Positions 2,222-35,957 of a stretch of DNA of 64,000 bases are shown here, one piece after another. A program made the translations under genes and the position numbers. This stretch comes from Parcubacteria group bacterium Gr01-1014_31 (GTDB lineage Bacteria > Patescibacteriota > Patescibacteriia > Buchananbacterales > GWA2-38-13). Below the pieces are notes generated by a model, which saw only the letters and a program-made list of their open reading frames with translations, was not told the origin of the DNA and searched no databases. The number at the start of each line of letters is the position of its first letter. Position 1 is the stretch's first letter. The stretch lies in the NCBI GenBank assembly GCA_007376135.1, contig VMFR01000007.1, forward strand, positions 24,287-88,286, in the 5' to 3' direction.

Positions 2222-5200
2222 ATGGAAACGGAAGAACCCCGGCAGAAAAAATCTTGGCCCGCGGAAGAGGAAATAATTCTTGCCCGCTGGCAGAAGGGAA
2301 AAATCTTTTCCAAAACTTTGGCGCGTAAATCGCCAAAAGGGAATTTTGTGTTCTACGAAGGGCCGCCGACGGCGAACGCCGCCCCCGGGGTGCACCATGT
2401 GTTGGCGCGTGTCTTCAAGGACATTATCGTCCGCTTCCGCACGATGCAGGGCTACCACGTGGAACGAAAGGCCGGCTGGGACACTCACGGCTTGCCGGTG
2501 GAGCTGCAGGTGGAAAAAAAGCTGGGTCTGAAGTCCAAACCCGAGATCGAAACGTACGGCATTGCCAAGTTCAACGCCGAATGCCGAGAGCTCGTCTGGC
2601 AATTCAAGGACGACTGGGAAAAATTGACCGAGCGTATCGGGTTTTGGCTGGACCTGAAACGTCCGTACGTCACGTATGAGAACGACTACATTGAGAGCGT
2701 GTGGTCGGTCATCGCGAAGGCGCACGCGCGCGAGCTGTTGTACCAAGGCCACAAGGTGGTGCCGTACTGCCCGCGCTGTGGCACTTCCCTGTCATCTCAT
2801 GAAGTGGCGCTTGGGTACCGAAAGATCAAGGAAGACTCCGTCTACGTCAAATGCCGCGTCACCGTTGGCAACCAGTTCGTGCAGAAGGGCGATTTCATCC
2901 TGACCTGGACGACCACGCCGTGGACGCTGCCGGGTAACGTCGCGTTGGCAGTCGGGCCGGATATTGATTATGTATTGGTAGAATTCTCCGATCAGAAAAG
3001 AGATGAAGAAGGAAATGTTGGGCATTTCAGAGCGGTAGTGGCGAAAAGTATTTTTGAATTATGGAAAAATCATCACGATTTGCCACACGATAGTCCACAC
3101 TTCCAATTCATTAGAGAAGGGGGCATTGAATATTTTTCTGGCATCTTAACAGATAAAGGAGAGGGTGCCGGTGGTAACCGCCCTCCGAAGGTCATTCACG
3201 AATTTCGGGGGAAAGATTTGGTTGGCGTTGAATATAAACCATTGTTTCCGGGAGCAGTAGAAAAAGGCAATGCAAAAGTTACTTGGCAAGTTGTACCAGC
3301 AGATTTTGTCACAACCACCGACGGCACGGGCGTCGTGCACACCGCAGTGATGTACGGCGAGGATGACTACCGGCTGGGTGAACAGGTTGGGCTGCCCAAA
3401 CAGCATACCGTCGGGCTGGACGGAAAATTTTTACCGCGCGTTACCGGTTTGGCCGGAAAATACGTGAAGGCCAAAGACACGCAGGAACTCATCTACGACC
3501 ATCTCAAGCGCAATGGCGCTTTCATGCAGACCGCACTTTACGAACACGACTATCCGTTCTGCTGGCGCTGCGATTCGCCGCTCCTGTACTACGCCAAGGA
3601 TTCGTGGTTTGTAGCGATGACCAAGGTGAAAGATGAGCTGCTCAAGAATGCTGAGCAGATCTCCTGGGAGCCCGCGCATATAAAAGAGGGGCGATTCGGC
3701 GAGTGGATCTCCGGCGTCAAAGACTGGGCCATTTCGCGCGAGCGGTATTGGGGAACGCCGCTTCCGGTCTGGGAATGCCGCGGCGGCAGAAGCAGGAAGC
3801 AGGAAGCAGGAAGCAGGGAATCGGCCGGTGAAGGTTGTGGCCATTGGCAGGTGGTGGGGTCGGTGGCGGAACTCAAAAAGTTGGCCAAAAAGATCCCGAA
3901 GGACTTGCATCGGCCGTTCATCGACGCAGTGACCTTCTCGTGTGCGGCGTGCGGCGGGACCATGCGGCGCGTCCCTGAAGTGATGGACGTGTGGCTGGAT
4001 TCCGGCTCGATGCCGTTCGCGCAGTATCATTATCCCTTCGAGAATGAAGAATTGATCGATGGTAAATTATCAACCACGAAATCCAAAAAAACCTACAAGC
4101 TACCACCTACAAGCTACAAGCTCGGAGCACAGTATCCGGCCGACTACATCTGCGAGGCCATTGACCAGACGCGCGGGTGGTTTTACACCCTGCTGGCCGT
4201 TTCCACCATCATGGGTAAAGGCACCAGTTACCGCAATGTGATTTGCCTGGGCCATATCAACGACGCCAGCGGCCGCAAGATGTCCAAGTCCAAGGGCAAC
4301 ATCGTCAACCCCTGGGATGTCATCAACAAGTTCGGCACCGACCCGCTGCGTTGGTACCTCTACACCATCAACCAGCCGGGCGAGGCCAAGAATTTCGATC
4401 TCAAGCAGATCGACGAGGTCGTCAAAAAAGTATTCCTCATCCTGCAAAACGTCGTGGCGTTCTACCGGCTGTATGTACCCAATCCTAAGGCGCAGGTGGT
4501 TCCCCCGAGAACGGAGCACGTGTTGGACCTATGGATCCTCGCGCGGATTTCCCAGTTGAGCGTGACCGTCACCGAAGCGCTGTCCCGGTATGGGGTTATC
4601 GAAGCGGCGCGGCCGATGAGCGACTTCATCACCGACCTGTCCACGTGGTATGTGCGCCGTTCGCGCGACCGCTTCAAGGCCGGCGACCCCGAGGCGATGG
4701 CCACCCTGGGGTACGTACTGCTGCAGACCGCAAAACTTTTAGCGCCGTTTACGCCGTTCTTTGCTGAATATGTGTACCGGGAAGTCGGCGGCAAGCTCGC
4801 CTCGGTGCATTTGGAAGACTGGCCGAAGCGGGAGTCCGTTGACCCGGTCGCGCTGGAAGCGATGACCAAAGCTCGGGCCGTGGTGACCGAGGGCTTGGCG
4901 CTGCGGATGTCAGCCGGGCTGAAGGTGCGCCAGCCGCTGGCCGCCGTTACCGGCCCCGCGATCGGGGCGGAGCTGCAGGATATTGTCAAAGAAGAATTGA
5001 ACGTGTTAGAGTATCGGACCGGCACGACCGTGGCGCTGGACACCGCGATGACCGACCAGCTGCGGGTTGCCGGGTTGGCGCGGGAATTGGTGCGGTGCAT
5101 CAACAACCTGCGCAAGGCGGCTGCGCTGACGGTTGCCGACCGGATCGCCGTCACCTACGACGGCGCACTCGATGACGTACTGGCGTCGCACCGCGACGAG

Positions 5201-8398: not shown

Positions 8399-8585
8399 AC
8401 CGCCGTTTTTTTTCCGAACATCGCGCCCTTTCCAGACCGGTTTGTCGGCACACCTTTCCCCGCCCCCTCGTAGCTTCCGCCCGAGGCGGATCCGCCTGGG
8501 GCGGACAATGGATACCTACCCCCCAGTTGTCGGGTTTATGGTGAGAAGAAATTGATATTGTTGTTTTGCATGGTTCTTTGCCTTT

Positions 8586-8657
8586 GCGCCCATAGCTCAA
8601 TGGATAGAGCACCGGCCTCCGGAGCCGGTGATCGAGGTTCGAATCCTCGTGGGCGCA
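8586..8657 (+). tRNA. tRNA-Arg (anticodon CCG)
   Basis: Cloverleaf folded by hand. Acceptor GCGCCCA/UGGGCGC, D-arm GCUCAAUGGAUAGAGC, anticodon stem CCGGC/GCCGG with loop CUCCGGA, T-arm CGAGGUUCGAAUCCUCG, discriminator A. CCA is not encoded. Confidence 0.85.
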
Positions 8658-8687
8658 GTGGCAAAGAACTCAGCAGAGGCAGGCGGG

Positions 8688-8767
8688 GAGCACCGGCCTC
8701 CGGCTCGTCCGCCGGAGTCCTGTGAAGGTGGAAGCCGGTGGTCGAGGTTCGAGTCCTTGTGGGCGCA
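8688..8767 (+). pseudogene. Partial tRNA-Arg copy (D-stem 3' side through discriminator) carrying a 29-nt insertion between positions 37 and 38
   Basis: gagcaccggcctccgg[ctcgtccgccggagtcctgtgaaggtgga]agccggtggtcgaggttcgagtccttgtgggcgca. No matching 5' acceptor or D-arm lies upstream. Confidence 0.55.
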
Positions 8768-8932
8768 GTGGTAGGAGGCTGATTTTTTGTTTCCCAAAAT
8801 GTACTTTTCGTAATTGAGGTTATACACACCCCAGCATCTATTTCTATTGATATTTATAAGTAATGAATTTGGTACGATTTTATTTTCGCGAATAAAATTG
8901 TCTTATTTTAGCAAAATATTTATGTTATCCTC

Positions 8933-8961
8933 TTGCCAATTATGGCTTGTCGTGATATAAT
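8933..8961 (+). promoter_or_regulatory. Sigma70-like promoter (TTGCCA-17-TATAAT) inside the AT-rich spacer upstream of the dockerin-module gene
   Basis: Hexamers and a 17-nt spacer read directly from the sequence. Located ~75 nt upstream of the ATG at 9036. Confidence 0.4.
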
Positions 8962-9035
8962 TAATAAGTATTCACATTTCGTCCTAAATTTACTTATTTA
9001 CCCCGCGCCTCATGAGGGCCGGGATTTCGATAGTT

Positions 9036-11659
9036 ATGAAACAGGCTCAGACGATTTCGCGGGTGACCGCGTTCCTGGTGAGCGCTTTCTGTTTTACGGT
9101 GGCGCTCGGTCTGTTCGTGTATGCCGGCTCGGTCGTAGCGGCAAACTCGAACGGAAATACTAACAGCTCTCCGACGCCGACCCCCTCGGCCACGGCGACA
9201 CCAACACCGACGCCGACAGCCACGCCGACTCCGACGCCAACCGCTACCCCGACGCCGACGATTACCGTCACTTCCCCTAATGGCGGTGAGCAGTGGTTTC
9301 GTGGCAGCACGTACCGCATCACCTGGCAAATCAGTGGCAACGTACAGAGTGTGATTGTGCGGTATCTGAACACAGCCGGCAATTCCTGGGTTATCGCGCA
9401 GCTGGACGCGGCGCTGGGCGGCCACGACTGGACGGTGACAGAGGGTGTACCGACCGGCCTCTACCGCATCGAGGTGGCCGATGCCGTGTACAGCTCGCCG
9501 GTGAAAGACGCCAGTGATACTACGTTCAGTATTGTCGCGCCACCGGCGCCGAGTCCGTCACCTTCACCGACCGCGACGGCAACGCCCACGCCGACCCCGT
9601 CGCCTACGCCGACGCCAACCCCGACGGCGAGCCCGGCCTCTTCACCGGTTCCGACCGTATCGGCAACGCCGACCCCAGTTTCCAGTCCTACCCCGGGCGC
9701 CTCTGCGACCCCAACCCCAACCGCTACCCCCTGGCCAACGGTAACGCCATCGCCGCAACCATCGGCAACGCCGAGTCCGTCAACCAGCCCTCAGCCGACC
9801 GCTTCCGCGACGCCGACGATGACTCCTTCGCCGACCCTGATCCCGTTGTCCCCAACAGCCGGGTTCATTCGCGGCGATGCGAATGGCAATGGCGTCATTG
9901 ATATTTCCGATACGGTCCGCATTTTGGACTACAATGCGGGGCGTGCCACGCTGTCGTGCCTAGACGCCGCCGACGTCAATGACGACGGCACAATTTCCGG
10001 AGTCGACGCCGATGCGCTCCAGGGTTACTTATTCCTCGGCACGCACCCGGCGCCCCGTGCGCCGTTCCCGACCCGCGGTGCCGACCCCACAGCGGACCGC
10101 CTGGGTTGCAGCCAGGTGCCAAGCCGATTCACCCCCCTCGCTGGCGTGACTTTCTTGCGCGGTGACGCTGATGGTAACGGCCGCGTGGACCAGTCCGATA
10201 CCGTCCGGATCCTGGGCTACTTCAATGGTACCGGCCCGGCCCCGACCTGCCTGGACGCCGCCGACGTGGACGATGACGGCTGGGTCAGCCCGTTCGATGC
10301 CGCGCGCCTGCAGCGGTGGCTGTTCTTGGGCGGTGCGGCACCTGCAGCGCGACGCCGCGGCCTTCCGTTGCTCCGACTCCGACGAGTTCCCCTCGTCCGT
10401 TGCCCACCCCCGCCGCAGCGCCGACGATCACGCAGGTCGGACAGTTCCTCCGCGGTGATGCCAATGGCGATGGCAAGCTGGATATCTCCGATGCGGTCAC
10501 CATCAATACCATGATCCATCTGGGAGGTACAATCGCCTGTCTGGATGCGGCGGACGCGAATGACAATGGCGGCGTAACTTCGGCTGATGCCGACTATGTG
10601 CTCGCCTATCTGTTCCGCGGCGGGCCAGCGCCGGCCGCACCTTACCCCGCCAAGGGGAACGATTCGACCGCTGATAGTCTGAACTGCGGCGAACAGGGCG
10701 GTGGTGCTTCCGGCATCTCCTTCTTGCGCGGAGACGCGAACGCCGATGGCCGCGTGGACCAGTCCGATACGGTACGTATCAACGAGTACCTGAATGATCG
10801 CGGCAGCATCAGTTGTCTGGATGCCGCCGATACGAACGACGATGGCGTGGTCAGCACGATGGACGCCCGCGCGCTGCAGGGGTTCCTGTTCCTCGGCAGC
10901 TACCCGTCGCCGCGCCAGCCCTATCCGACGGTCGGTTTGGACACGACGACTGACGGCTTGGGATGCGCCGCGTACCGCGGCAGCGTCGCGCCAACACCAA
11001 GCGTAAGCCCTTCCCCCAGCGCATCACCGACGGTAAGCCCGACACCGAGCGGTTCGCCACAACCGTCCACGAGCCCGACGTCCAGCGCCTCGCCTGCGGT
11101 TTCGCCGACGCCCGCCCAGTCGCCGGTTCCTCCGGGCGCAACGGCGCTCTACATCCGCGGTGACGCCAACGGCAGCGGCGGATTGGATATCTCCGACACC
11201 GCCCGCATCTTGGATTACCTGGTTGGTCGCGCGTCGATCGCCTGCTTGGATGCCGCCGACGTCAATGATGACGGGCAGATCACCGACGCTGACGCCGATG
11301 CGATCCAGGGCTACCTGTTCCTCGGTACGCATCCGGCGCCCCGTGCGCCGTTCCCAACCCGAGGTGCCGACCCGACAGCGGATCAGCTTGGCTGCACGCA
11401 CGTGCCGTTCCGGCTGACCCCGCCAGCCGTGACCTTCCTGCGCGGCGATGCCGACGGCAGCGGCCGCATTGACCAGGCCGACACCCTGCGCATTTTGAAC
11501 TACTTCAACGGCATCGGCCCGGCCCCGACCTGTCTGGACGCCGCCGACGTGGACGATGACGGCTGGGTCAGCCCGTTCGATGCCGCGCGCCTGCAGCGGT
11601 GGCTGTTCTTGGGCGGTGCGGCACCTGCAGCGAGGACACCACTTTCTATCTTTCTATGA
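9036..11659 (+). CDS. Secreted multi-dockerin-like protein: signal peptide, Thr/Pro-linkers, a small beta-sandwich domain and six dockerin-type EF-hand-pair modules. The reading frame is broken by a 1-nt frameshift near 10347.
   Basis: Signal peptide [20 protein letters not shown]. Six repeats of GDANG.G..D.SD...IL.Y...G...[11 protein letters not shown]....D...L..YLF.G. The frame 0 to frame 2 switch is exactly where the second terminal module reads AAPAARTP. The 3' end overlaps the next gene by ATGA. Confidence 0.6.
10231..10350 (+). repeat. 120-bp near-identical intragenic repeat (copy 1 of 2; partner at 11513-11632)
   Basis: Direct comparison shows one mismatch over ~120 nt. The frameshift lies at the 3' edge of this copy. 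Confidence 0.8.
11513..11632 (+). repeat. 120-bp near-identical intragenic repeat (copy 2)
   Basis: See copy 1. Confidence 0.8.
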
Positions 11660-32969: not shown

Positions 32970-35957
32970 ATGGAGCCGCAAATCAGGACTCTCGTGAAAG
33001 CTTCCGTGGCTACCACCGCTTCTGCTGCGGCAATGTTGACCGTCAGCGCGGTGGCTTTATTTGTGTCGTGGGGATCAATGATGGTTGCCGTTGGCGGGTC
33101 GCTGGGAATTCAGCAAGCCAGATCAACTATCCCAACATCAGGTCTCAGCCTGTCTAAGAGCGAGAGCATTACGTGCCCGAAGATTTTGTATAGAACTTTT
33201 GATTTTGCTACATCGAAGGCCGCCGATAGTATTGCCGAAAGCAAGGTGTTGCAGCTCAAGGAAGATATAGCCCGTCAGGCCAGAATTCGTCAGGTTGAGC
33301 GCTCATTACGAAGGGTGGTTGAGGGGAAAAAGAGCATTACCGATCTTGGGGAGCAGCTTGTTCAGTATCAAAATGCCTTTATTAACCTGATGCGGTCAGA
33401 ACCAACAGCGGCGCTTCGGTATCTCCCTGATCAGGACATGCTCGATTCATTCGGAGAAACAACAGAAAACTGCTTACCCAAGGAAACCCATGAAACCGGC
33501 AGTATGCTGGTGGTACATGCGGATGATTTTGAGAACGAAACGAGTAAAACCGAATATTCCATAAAAACCGAATTTGGGAAGAAATTAATCCTCCATTTCA
33601 CAAAGCAGGATAAATTCATGGAGTCGCGCACAAAGATCAAAATCGCCAAGGGGTATGAGATAAATGGAGAGCTATTGGTAGAGGATTATGAAGTACTATC
33701 GCAACCCGGCAATCCTCCGGCCCTTGGCCCCCAGAAGACCATCGTGGTCGAGATTCGGCCAAGAATTATCGTCTCTGGCGGCAGTTCTGCCGCCGTCGGC
33801 GATGCCTTTCTCACCCCAGAGGAGATACGGCAAGACGTTTTCACCTCAATCGCCCAATTTTATTCCCAGAATTCCTATAACCAACTTCAAATTGTGGGTC
33901 AGGATGGGTTGTCCGGAAATACCGATGATGTTATTGGGCCCGTTCCAATGGATATCACCATTCCAAAATTTTGGTGCAGTTTAGGCGGCACAGAACAGGC
34001 TTGCGAGCCAACCAATCCTCTTAATTGTGCGCGCGGTGATGGCGCCGGGTGTACGCCGAGGAACCAAAATTTATGCCAGCAGGGTGAAGTAAACGGAAGC
34101 TGTGTCCCGGAGTGCTCATTCGATGAACTGCAACAAAAACTCGTTGCCGCGATTGATCCCGTGATCACATTTCAGAATAACGAGCGCATCATTGGCGTTC
34201 TGCCGGAAATACTTTATTGCGGCTGGACCGGTATTGCCAATATAGGTTTAGCGGACACAAAAATCGCGGATGACCCAAATCCCATCCCGCTTTCTTTCAC
34301 TTTTGCCATTCCTCGCATTGGGAAGACGCGTGAAGAGAACAGATACTATGGGGTAAGAACCTTGGCGCACGAAATGGGGCACAATTATGGGAATTTACAT
34401 GCCACGATGTGGGCCTGCTCCAATACGAAGGACCAGGTGCAAAGCTGGGAGGGGCAATCACCGTGTTTCTATGAATACGGAGATCATTTTGATGTCATGG
34501 GGCGGGGTTATCTGCCGAACAGCAATGCCGTCTTAAAAGAAAATCTTGGATGGCTTCCGTCGCAGGACAATAACCATGAGATGCTTATACTTGGGGTAAC
34601 CGATGGCGGGACCTATACTCTTCAACCTATGGGAAGCGGTGGCGTGGAAGCAATAAAAATTCCGCGTAATATGCAAAATACTGATTTTCCAAATCTCTAT
34701 ATTGAATATCGGCGCCCCGAAGGACTGGACAGCAAACTTCCTGATTTTTTTGTAAAACAAGGGCTTGCTTCGGATGTCTTTGAGGGTGCCACGATCCATT
34801 TGGGTAATGCCATGGGCCAGTCATTTCTCATTGATGCCAAACCGCCATACACCACGTCTCTTATGACCGCCTTGCCTTTTGGTGGGAGCTATTATGATCC
34901 GTATTCGGGAGTGAGGATAACCTTAGGGAATGATTCGCCAGGCGGATTGCCCGTCACCATAGTATTTGAAGATATTGATAATGAAGGACCTTTCGTTTCA
35001 GGGTTGCAGAAAATCAGTTCACAAGACTGCGTGGTTGTTTATGAAGCCGCGGCACAAGACCCGAGCGGGATATCCAAGGTGGTGTTCAACCCCGCTCTTC
35101 CAGACCTTGCCCAAGAAGTGGCTGGTCCGCCATACCGTTGGGAAGTGAATTTGATGGATTATCCCGAACAGTATTTGTCCTTTCGGGCATACGACAATAG
35201 CCTGTTGAGGAATTATTCCGACAGCGAAAAAATGGATTTATGGGCGGATGAACCTTTGTGCGCGCATAACATAAAAGTGAAATTCTACTCTCCGTTGGAA
35301 AATTCAGTGCAGAGCAATACAGTAGCGTTTCGTTTCGACGTTTATTCACCGAGTGGGTTAATGCAGGTATTGTCCGACGTAACAGATGGATATGGCCAAC
35401 GTACGCGTATTATTGAAAATTGGATAACCGAACTCGGCCCTTCGGTGATGGAACGGTCATACCACGTTGAGGAAAATCTTATCGGCGGAAGATACCGTTT
35501 CGGCCTGGAAATTATCAATATGGAAGGGCGCACGTTGCGTTTTTTCCACTATTTTGATGTTCGTAATGCCTGCAACGACGGAATAGACAATGATCATGAT
35601 GGAACGATCGATTACGGGGGTGGAGGATCGGGCGGAGACCTCGGATGTGAGAGTGTTGATGATAATAGCGAGGAATCGACTTTTTATCGTTCTGACGTCG
35701 ACATGAGCGGGGGAGCAAATATGACGGATGCCATAATTATTTTGCGCCATTTATTTTTTAGTGACCCTGTCGCTCTTTCCTGCCAGGATGCCGCAGATGT
35801 TGACGATAGCGGGTTTGTGAATATCACCGATCCCATTTATCTACTAAAGTATCTGTTCGCTACTGATAATCCACCGCCGCCCGCGCCCTATAACCAATGT
35901 GGGCTTGATATGACCAGTGATACCATCGGCTGCCGCAGTTTCCCTTCCTGCGAGTAG
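32970..35957 (+). CDS. Secreted zinc metalloprotease (HEMGHNYGNLH zincin motif) with a C-terminal dockerin-like module. The gene is conspicuously AT-rich.
   Basis: HExxH...H motif at ~34370. C-terminal segment MTDAIIILRHLFF...LSCQDAADVDDSGFVNITDPIYLLKYLFATDNPPPPAPYNQCG matches the module of the 9036-11659 protein. Confidence 0.7.
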   Translation: MEPQIRTLVKASVATTASAAAMLTVSAVALFVSWGSMMVAVGGSLGIQQARSTIPTSGLSLSKSESITCPKILYRTFDFATSKAADSIAESKVLQLKEDIARQARIRQVERSLRRVVEGKKSITDLGEQLVQYQNAFINLMRSEPTAALRYLPDQDMLDSFGETTENCLPKETHETGSMLVVHADDFENETSKTEYSIKTEFGKKLILHFTKQDKFMESRTKIKIAKGYEINGELLVEDYEVLSQPGNPPALGPQKTIVVEIRPRIIVSGGSSAAVGDAFLTPEEIRQDVFTSIAQFYSQNSYNQLQIVGQDGLSGNTDDVIGPVPMDITIPKFWCSLGGTEQACEPTNPLNCARGDGAGCTPRNQNLCQQGEVNGSCVPECSFDELQQKLVAAIDPVITFQNNERIIGVLPEILYCGWTGIANIGLADTKIADDPNPIPLSFTFAIPRIGKTREENRYYGVRTLAHEMGHNYGNLHATMWACSNTKDQVQSWEGQSPCFYEYGDHFDVMGRGYLPNSNAVLKENLGWLPSQDNNHEMLILGVTDGGTYTLQPMGSGGVEAIKIPRNMQNTDFPNLYIEYRRPEGLDSKLPDFFVKQGLASDVFEGATIHLGNAMGQSFLIDAKPPYTTSLMTALPFGGSYYDPYSGVRITLGNDSPGGLPVTIVFEDIDNEGPFVSGLQKISSQDCVVVYEAAAQDPSGISKVVFNPALPDLAQEVAGPPYRWEVNLMDYPEQYLSFRAYDNSLLRNYSDSEKMDLWADEPLCAHNIKVKFYSPLENSVQSNTVAFRFDVYSPSGLMQVLSDVTDGYGQRTRIIENWITELGPSVMERSYHVEENLIGGRYRFGLEIINMEGRTLRFFHYFDVRNACNDGIDNDHDGTIDYGGGGSGGDLGCESVDDNSEESTFYRSDVDMSGGANMTDAIIILRHLFFSDPVALSCQDAADVDDSGFVNITDPIYLLKYLFATDNPPPPAPYNQCGLDMTSDTIGCRSFPSCE

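Follow-up and report, generated by a model that had tools for sequence, protein, structure and literature searches.

How does a bacterial tRNA gene come to be followed by a partial copy of itself that is interrupted at the classical intron position? The question is raised by a stretch of 64,000 nucleotides of Parcubacteria group bacterium Gr01-1014_31 (contig VMFR01000007.1, positions 24,287 to 88,286), a member of the Candidate Phyla Radiation (CPR). This stretch is termed the window; coordinates refer to it, and features lie on the plus strand unless stated otherwise. Its single tRNA gene, a tRNA-Arg(CCG), is located at 8586–8657 between ruvA and a gene encoding a dockerin protein (ARAGORN; Rfam RF00005, 73.5 bits; ends at 8585/8586 and 8657/8658). 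A partial copy (8688–8771) follows after a spacer of 30 nt (8658–8687). We consider it probable that this copy is the 3′ two-thirds (positions 22–76) of an older tRNA-Arg(CCG) gene, which was split by an insertion bearing today's gene and persists as a strain-variable relic. In the following, the functional gene is referred to as the inner gene and the older one as the outer gene.

Anatomy of the interrupted outer gene

A preliminary description, made from the letters of the sequence, had reported a canonical tRNA-Arg(CCG) and a partial 3′ copy that runs from the 3′ strand of the D-stem onward with three substitutions and a 29-nt insert exactly between loop positions 37 and 38. All of this was borne out. 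In a repeat search, 8688–8703 matched 8607–8622 of the inner gene at 16 out of 16 nucleotides, and 8733–8771 matched 8623–8661 at 36 out of 39. The first block corresponds to outer positions 22–37 (3′ strand of the D-stem, 5′ strand of the anticodon stem, and the loop up to G37), the second to positions 38–73 (8733–8767; 3′ strand of the anticodon stem, variable loop, T-arm, and 3′ strand of the acceptor). The repeat extends 4 nt (gtgg) beyond the 3′ end of the tRNA, which adds to the earlier account; these nucleotides open the outer trailer (gtggtaggagg, 8768–8778) and are those of the inner trailer. All three differences are transitions (8741, 8753, and 8758); one falls at tRNA position 59 and is not diagnostic. 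A 32-nt pattern derived from the copy matched twice in the window and not once in 100 shuffles. The insert, designated module A (ctcgtccgccggagtcctgtgaaggtgga, 29 nt, 8704–8732), follows base 6 of the 7-nt anticodon loop ctCCGga, and its placement is unambiguous, since the bordering bases permit no shift. As had also been stated, the copy does not fold as a tRNA on its own: neither ARAGORN nor Rfam called it, and the intact tRNA lies 30 nt upstream.

The statement that no 5′ acceptor or D-arm precedes the copy is correct for the 30-nt spacer. It does not hold for the locus as a whole, because positions 1–21 sit 174 nt upstream of the copy (8462–8514), beyond the functional tRNA. This upstream part begins with a leader (cacaccttt, 8449–8457) that aligns with the leader acaccttt of L037, a distantly related locus introduced below; the same leader stands directly 5′ of the tRNA in the loci L047 and L048. 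It is followed by decayed outer positions 1 to about 12 (gccccctcgtagct, 8462–8475), which align with gcgcccatagtt of L037. At outer position 12/13, two tandem 15-nt hairpins are inserted (TCCGCCcgaGGCGGA and TCCGCCtggGGCGGA, 8476–8505; module B). Both are perfect palindromes, and the RNA fold of the module has a free energy of −26.1 kcal/mol (z = −4.85). Outer positions 13–21 (caatggata, 8506–8514) are identical to the same positions of the inner tRNA.

The outer gene is then broken at position 21/22 by a third insertion (insertion C, 8515–8687), which comprises an AT-rich stretch, the functional tRNA and the stem formed by its leader and trailer, and, as the right end, caggcggg. The junctions are the same in L037, and the ends of the insertion form imperfect inverted repeats (L037 cctgcccgcc/L048 ggcgggcagg). 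Since this insertion carries the present gene, the old 5′ piece (8462–8514) and the old 3′ piece (8688–8778) bracket the functional tRNA. The two pieces are complementary: the upstream one ends with caatggata (positions 13–21) and the downstream one starts with gagc (position 22), with neither overlap nor gap. After in silico removal of the three insertions, ARAGORN called a tRNA-Arg(ccg) in the window as well as in L037. In the rebuilt window gene, gccccct served as the 5′ strand of the acceptor with five of seven pairs; the rebuilt L037 gene has seven of seven acceptor pairs and four of four D-stem pairs. The 3′ piece has the characteristics of a tRNA relic, as it is derived from a tRNA, is not called as one, lies beside an intact gene, and is absent from the sister strains L001 and L035.

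Homologous loci in sister strains and distant lineages

Comparison with the orthologous loci of related genomes, proposed with the preliminary description as a check, gave a divided result: homologous arrangements exist in distant lineages, and two sister strains are without the 3′ piece. These two, L001 (a metagenome-assembled genome from GenBank) and L035, have RuvA proteins 98%–99% identical to that of the window. Both share with the window the tRNA, its 30-nt trailer, and the AT-rich region downstream at approximately 97% identity and lack exactly 92 nt, which correspond to window positions 8687–8778. A gain or loss of 92 nt among near-identical strains represents a presence/absence polymorphism inside a species-level group. 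Most simply, the 3′ piece was lost from the sister strains by deletion, and its absence there argues against a function.

The nested layout was found again in nine contigs from independent samples (L037–L045; RuvA 60% identical), which are identical to each other at this locus. The order is outer positions 1–12, a double hairpin, positions 13–21, the insertion with the functional tRNA, positions 22–37, a 29-nt insert, positions 38–55, a second double hairpin, positions 56–73, and a trailer. In L037, the upstream piece reads acaccttt, gcgcccatagtt, the double hairpin tccgccaatggcgga tccgcccggggcgga, and caacggata; it thus represents the tRNA leader and positions 1–21, broken after position 12, and the downstream copy begins at position 22. 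After the same trailer and the junction ggcaggcggg, gaacgtgggcctccgg is followed by the 29-nt insert ctcgcccgccgaagcacggcgtaggcggg and agtccggg, and further downstream by the T-arm with a 30-nt double hairpin inside, caattcctactgggcgca, and aaggtg. The outer trailer of these contigs is complementary to the outer leader (aaaggtgt and acaccttt in L037). The inserts of L037 and the window are identical at 20 of 29 nucleotides. Module B is present at the same place in L001, L035, L036, and L037.

Double hairpins related to module B (TCCCCC.../TCACCC...) are located at position 12/13 in L047 and at position 55/56 in L037. The insertion site lies between GTT and CAA in L037, and only the GTT side is recognizable in L047.

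In the still more distant loci L048 and L051 (RuvA approximately 53% identical), a 31-nt version of the insert directly follows the cctccgg of the tRNA 5′ half. The start of the insert, c[tc][ct]g[tc]ccgccg[gat]ag right after cctccgg, is common to the window, L037, L048, and L051. The homology of the insert among these loci shows that it did not arise by chance in a single strain, nor as a new alteration of a newly made duplicate. At the 21/22 junction, the insertion of L048 comprises no more than 30 nt. In L050 and L047, the older copy is broken at position 34/35 by an insertion (ccccgcacc.../...ggtgcgggg) that holds a full tRNA. An intact, intron-less tRNA-Arg(CCG) was present at every readable locus. 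Two further loci are free of the relic: L002 is a plain ruvA–tRNA locus, and L046, whose contig breaks off after the first 5 nt of the tRNA, has no relic between ruvA and the start of the tRNA. Hence, the relic has been added to a locus of this plain type. Contigs reached via dockerin homologues, which were sought to extend L048 and L051 downstream, all begin past the tRNA region.

These comparisons also bear on a recent local duplication, in which the 3′ part of the adjacent tRNA would have been copied in this strain and then have received the 29-nt insert. The copy is indeed closest to its neighbor (52 of 55 positions), shares the four nucleotides gtgg with it, and is missing in the nearest relatives L001 and L035. 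Such a scenario nevertheless appears unlikely. It is largely refuted by the homology of the insert and of the junction (caggcggg followed by g(a/g)ac) in L037, L048, and L051, whose RuvA proteins are 50%–60% identical. In addition, the inverted arm of the insert fits another allele (cacagg) than the adjacent one, the upstream piece ending exactly at position 21 is left unexplained, and a 29-nt insertion, an 18-nt loss, and five substitutions would be needed in a lineage whose flanks differ by approximately 3%.

If the copy is part of an old outer gene, its close resemblance to the inner gene calls for another cause. The outer copy of L037 is closest to an L047-type gene (48 of 61 positions), and the two outer copies agree with each other at 43 of 61 positions. 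This fits a homogenization of the window relic by the neighboring functional gene; gene conversion from the adjacent gene would account for both the 52/55 identity and the shared gtgg. Exchange at the locus is also indicated by L035 (RuvA 99% identical), which carries an L037-type tRNA allele and a different AT-rich segment upstream (L035 1716–1860, compared with window 8539–8684). The allele of a distant lineage in so close a relative points to allele replacement by recombination.

L037 contains a third tRNA-Arg 3′ fragment at 3975–4120 (agtatgggatcg ... cgaatcctcgtgggcgca). Its T-arm is split by an insertion of approximately 125 nt that is bounded by terminal inverted repeats of 14 nt (gccccgtcattcga/tcgaatgacggggc); downstream of the fragment lies the hairpin/T-run terminator of the locus itself.

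Origin of the 29-nt insert

The core of the window insert, 13 nt in length (ccggagtcctgtg), is an inverted copy of tRNA positions 25–37. The repeat search listed the arms 8691–8704 and 8711–8724 as 86% complementary over 14 nt; the insert arm pairs with the adjoining exon at 11 of 13 positions across an 8-nt loop. The reverse complement of the insert matches positions 25–37 of the cacagg allele (L035, L037, and L051) at 12 of 13 nucleotides, which is better than the match to the adjacent caccgg allele. This suggests that, in an earlier allele, the tip of the anticodon hairpin underwent a foldback or template-switch duplication, so that the insert would be largely self-derived. A foldback at the hairpin tip would explain the position in the anticodon loop without the need for an intron. 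The 30-nt filler at position 21/22 of L048 likewise consists of tRNA pieces, some in direct and some in inverted orientation. Taken alone, the 29-nt insert folds weakly (z = −0.7 in the window and −2.7 in L037), and no covarying pair was found within it among the four sequences.

The position of the insert had led to the proposal of a decayed duplicate of a once intron-containing tRNA. Of the explanations offered in the preliminary description, this one comes closest to the evidence, as far as an older interrupted copy and an insert common to distant lineages are concerned. The arrangement is nested rather than tandem, and no sign of splicing was seen. A group I intron can be ruled out by the length of 29 nt, by the preceding G37 in place of a U, and by the lack of any Rfam intron match; even at permissive thresholds, Rfam matched only tRNA in the window region and in L037. 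For the bulge–helix–bulge motif of archaeal introns (two 3-nt bulges, a 4-bp central helix, and an inner helix at the exon–intron borders), candidates were scored by script. The window insert reached three of four central pairs (C-G, UxU, C-G, and C-G) with a 1-bp inner helix, and the L037 insert the same with UxC. Among the archaeal controls, L007 scored four of four with 3 bp, and L015, which has an 11-nt intron, scored three of four with 1 bp, the same as the inserts of L037 and the window. For the inserts within the D- and T-arms, the score was 0–1 of 4. The insert does occupy position 37/38, yet a complete gene results only from joining the two pieces and taking out two other insertions. 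No gene resembling a tRNA splicing endonuclease or ligase was found in the window, and bacteria are not known to possess the archaeal splicing endonuclease. Nothing shows that the insert is spliced as a working intron.

A scan of metagenome contigs for tRNA-Arg(CCG) anticodon arms with a 10–40-nt insert at position 37/38 returned 30 matches, of which 25 were chance matches in GC-rich DNA and five were true archaeal tRNA-Arg genes that carry an intron and whose T-arms are unrelated. A second copy of the element was not among the results of this gapped scan. The archaeal tRNA-Arg(CCG) genes L007, L029, L015, L027, and L028 carry introns of 11–15 nt at position 37/38; L007 and L029 have a D-loop insert as well.

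A functional role of the outer gene would take the form of an interrupted tRNA, whose inserts are removed by some bacterial pathway or whose halves pair in trans once the inner tRNA has been excised, or of a structured trailer or terminator of the tRNA. Several observations speak for it. Between lineages, conservation is higher in the relic blocks than in coding DNA, the insert occurs at position 37/38 in four lineages, the pairing of the central helix equals that of one true archaeal control intron, and the 133-nt trailer of the window folds slightly better than shuffled sequences (z = −2.1). The outer gene of L037 has kept its acceptor, D-, and anticodon stems as well as the leader/trailer helix intact. 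The split or processed tRNA considered in the preliminary description is reflected only in the layout of the DNA, where complementary pieces flank another gene. Evidence against a function is that the outer acceptor of the window is mismatched at two of seven pairs and that the sister strains are wholly without the 3′ piece. The outer T-stem of L037 retains three of five pairs, L048 and L051 possess the insert with no 3′ half after it, and the lack of covariation within the insert and the intron-less gene at every readable locus point in the same direction. Together, this makes a functional outer gene decidedly improbable.

Search for mobile elements

Direct repeats of a tRNA 3′ portion beside the tRNA are the classic signature of integration (PMC9897764), and the repeat of 8607–8661 in 8688–8703 and 8733–8771 conforms to it. 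The fragment might accordingly be the remnant of an attachment site, left displaced after an integrative element or prophage had entered the tRNA-Arg gene and was later lost. The locus clearly recombines often, and in L037 the 3′ end of the tRNA is repeated once more approximately 295 nt downstream over 18 nt (cgaatcctcgtgggcgca, starting in the T-loop). Element DNA or an integrase between or beside the repeats was not found: the 30 nt after the tRNA are host sequence, common to the fragment-free strains. Nor does the fragment start at a crossover sublocation such as the anticodon loop, the T-loop, or the extreme 3′ end. It begins at position 22 in the 3′ strand of the D-stem and is complemented by the upstream piece that ends at position 21. 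The suggested search for an integrase elsewhere on the contig was carried out over the 64 kb. No integrase, transposase, or phage domain was detected in open reading frames (ORFs) of at least 100 amino acids (Pfam, approximately 40 ORFs), and the ORFs with a Pfam match encode housekeeping or surface proteins. The gene order ileS–ruvA–tRNA-Arg–dockerin–Mur ligase is retained in the lineage whose RuvA is 60% identical; with syntenic housekeeping genes on both flanks in the relatives, there is no island at the locus. In viral contigs of IMG/VR, neither the gapped tRNA-plus-insert pattern nor the exact 23-nt junction motif had a match. A looser 17-base motif had 14, about the chance expectation, and none of them in a tRNA context. 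The one match of the 14 that was inspected closely, L066, bears a resemblance but is GC-rich, ORF-dense sequence without a tRNA. On these grounds, an integrase scar, one of the possibilities raised in the preliminary description, is not supported, and we regard an attachment-site remnant as improbable.

With regard to palindromic mobile elements, the modules are hairpin-forming, but dispersed copies are lacking within the window and the compared loci. Within the window, this locus is the only place with a perfect hairpin motif TCCGCCnnnGGCGGA, and no further copy of any module was found elsewhere in the 64 kb or, among the other loci, anywhere beyond the tRNA-Arg locus.

The double hairpin TCCGCCnnnGGCGGA-TCCGCCnnnGGCGGA (window 8476–8505) also occurs in two IMG/VR contigs, in intergenic positions with no tRNA nearby (L054 4886–4915 and L055 390–419).

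Proposed history of the locus

The older tRNA-Arg(CCG) would formerly have been the resident gene downstream of ruvA. It may have gained hairpin-forming inserts, namely the 30-nt double hairpin at position 12/13 and the 29-nt module at position 37/38, before an insertion of approximately 170 nt split it at position 21/22 and brought in a complete tRNA-Arg(CCG), leader/trailer helix included. Gene conversion from the neighbor would then have homogenized the exon-like parts of the relic, and the 92-nt 3′ piece would have been deleted in the sister strains. In the window, the relic would lie in the 3′ trailer of the tRNA, upstream of the T-run 8783–8788, and be discarded at maturation. It most likely serves no purpose of its own. 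Observed are the locus anatomy, the homology among lineages, and the polymorphism of the 3′ piece; the sequence of events, an origin of the insert by foldback, the gene conversion, and a joint transcription of relic and tRNA are inferred.

The position of the relic relative to the probable terminator is in line with this scheme. L001 and L035 possess a small hairpin (TCAGC-N11-GCTGA) and TTTTTT directly after the tRNA trailer, and in the window the 92-nt relic sits within the loop of that hairpin. It is therefore probably transcribed as part of the tRNA 3′ trailer and trimmed. The sequence ctga with a run of six T (8779–8788) is the probable end of the tRNA transcription unit, although the pattern scan did not list it.

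Several points weigh against the proposed history. When the window is aligned with L037, identity amounts to 83% for the 5′ piece of the relic and to 73% for positions 22–37 plus insert, compared with 65%–67% for the DNA of ruvA and ileS; relic blocks more alike than genes suggest either a recent movement between lineages or an unrecognized constraint. We know of no established mechanism for a clean single insertion at position 21/22 that bears a tRNA and leaves no target duplication. The foldback signal is pronounced in the window (11/13), intermediate to strong in L051 (8/10), and weak in L037 and L048 (5/6). The comparison covers about nine distinct versions of the locus, several of them short contigs that end within the region.

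The exact arrangement of the window, furthermore, was seen in a single assembly (L033 represents the identical contig, ENA ERZ27284378 k139_644634), as would be expected if the metagenome assembler had made the duplicate from a strain mixture. Strains with and without the 92 nt do coexist in public data, and a Logan contig with an identical RuvA (L034, SRR8863434) ends at window position 8451, where the outer leader and thus the relic begins; this break is consistent with strain heterogeneity or with repeats interrupting the assembly. A unique 29-nt sequence and three substitutions, however, go beyond the collapse or expansion of a repeat, and the homologous arrangement is identical in nine independent assemblies of another lineage. 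An assembly artefact is consequently highly improbable.

The similarity of the relic blocks would be explained if the single tRNA-Arg(CCG) of the clade had been invaded repeatedly by protein-less inverted-repeat cassettes, each with a replacement tRNA-Arg(CCG) that splits the resident gene, and if the nested relics moved between lineages. Of the insertion points observed, the one in the window and L037 is 21/22, that in L050 and L047 is 34/35, and that in L048 and L051 lies after the 37/38 module. We put this forward as a speculation that is unlikely as it stands. A bolder variant would regard the inserts at positions 12/13, 37/38, and 55/56 as present or former intervening sequences of a bacterial tRNA that are not of the group I type. 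If relic blocks do pass between lineages, they would constitute a very small gene-replacing mobile unit that is worth a systematic survey.

Comparison with known systems

Fragments and pseudogenes near intact tRNA genes are known to be left behind by element integration and by recombination (van der Gulik et al., 2023, PMC9897764). A tRNA gene fragment or pseudogene beside an intact gene is the closest known category for the relic described here. Like these fragments, it is a partial, nonfunctional tRNA beside a gene for the same isoacceptor at a strain-variable, often recombining locus. Unlike them, it is associated with no element or integrase, it has not been displaced by an integrated element but forms one of two complementary pieces that bracket the functional gene, and the pieces carry small hairpin inserts whose position is kept across distant lineages. 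While tRNA fragments next to tRNA genes are routinely taken as integrase scars, this locus points to another route, in which an old gene is split and replaced by a copy inside it.

The split and permuted tRNA genes of Nanoarchaeum, Caldivirga, and Cyanidioschyzon likewise consist of two complementary pieces that lie apart, with complementary leader and trailer ends as in L037. The Parcubacteria locus differs in the complete gene for the same tRNA between the pieces, in the extra inserts, in the decay of the pieces in the window, and in the partial deletion in sister strains. No description of such nesting, in which the functional tRNA gene lies within the D-loop region of the gene it replaced, was found in the literature searched, which is a weak negative.

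With archaeal bulge–helix–bulge introns, including those of the multi-intron tRNAs of Thermoproteales, the relics share a 29–31-nt insert at position 37/38, short inserts in the D- and T-arms, and a partial pairing of the anticodon with the 3′ end of the insert (three of four). In contrast to them, the host is a bacterium, the central helix has a U-U or U-C mismatch, the inner helix comprises 1 bp, and the D- and T-arm inserts lack the motif. Moreover, the interrupted genes are incomplete, an intron-less copy does the work, and the true archaeal tRNA-Arg(CCG) introns are unrelated in sequence. The group I introns of bacterial tRNA-Leu, tRNA-fMet, tRNA-Arg, and tRNA-Ile interrupt the anticodon loop, too, but have a core of about 200 nt or more, compared with 29 nt here, and the U of the P1 wobble pair in place of the G before the insert. 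Position alone is thus insufficient for calling introns or split tRNAs in the annotation of CPR genomes; here, small, apparently self-derived hairpin insertions happen to fall at the classical intron position.

Repetitive extragenic palindromic sequences and bacterial interspersed mosaic elements (REP/BIME), the Rickettsia palindromic elements, and the mitochondrial double-hairpin elements are small palindromic insertions and served as a further comparison set. As in these elements, the hairpins are short, are inserted flush with no target duplication into RNA genes or their relics, and include the same double hairpin at two tRNA positions. They differ in that no other copy was found in the 64 kb, in that the modules were seen only in tRNA-Arg relics apart from the two intergenic IMG/VR copies, and in that several modules are scrambled tRNA sequence. 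Within a short stretch, the locus documents repeated recombination at an essential tRNA gene that is present in a single copy in a reduced genome.

Transcription signals and gene neighborhood

The inner tRNA is flanked by a leader arm (8573–8582) and a trailer arm (ggcaaagaac, 8660–8669), which were identified by the repeat search. They form a 10-bp helix that extends the acceptor stem, with compensatory or wobble changes in L001, L035, and L037. A leader/trailer helix of 10–12 bp was observed around the functional tRNA-Arg in the window, L001, L035, L037, L047, and L002. Between lineages, the arms differ entirely in sequence while the pairing is kept (window, gttctttgcc/ggcaaagaac; L035, gttctctgcc/ggcagagaac; L047, ccccccaccttt/aaaggtgggggg; L002, ccgcctttcaaa/tttgagaggcgg), which suggests a conserved role in precursor processing or termination.

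The AT-rich stretch that follows the copy had been noted correctly; with a GC content of 0.297, 8780–9011 is the lowest 232-nt stretch of the window. It contains a sigma-70-type promoter (TTGCCA-17-TATAAT with an upstream TG, 8933–8961; 11 of 12 consensus matches), and the same hexamers with 17-nt spacing precede the orthologous gene in L001, L035, L002, and L037. By its sequence features, the spacer is the predicted promoter and leader region of the dockerin gene and not a feature of the tRNA.

The bacterial nature of the host is reflected in ruvA, the Mur ligase gene, and rpoB/C in the window. According to Pfam, the tRNA is preceded by ileS, a NIF3-like gene, and ruvA and followed by the genes for the secreted dockerin protein and Mur ligase, rpoB, rpoC, and then ftsK, recA, efp, and others. 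The downstream neighbor (9036–10514) encodes a secreted Thr/Pro-rich protein with dockerin domains (Pfam Dockerin_1, 8.1 ∙ 10−17; 100% identical to a Gr01-1014_31 protein at NCBI). The dockerin region consists of two overlapping ORFs in different frames (9012–10514 and 10316–11659), for which the source gene caller gave a 655-amino-acid product from near 9819 and, across the Thr/Pro-rich part, an ORF on the minus strand. In L037, the orthologue is a single gene of 667 amino acids, and the two frames may reflect a frameshift or a gene-calling problem. Further downstream, an ORF of 995 amino acids (32970–35957) with a gametolysin-type M11 peptidase domain has a GC content of 0.48, compared with approximately 0.61 in the rest of the window, and may have been acquired horizontally.

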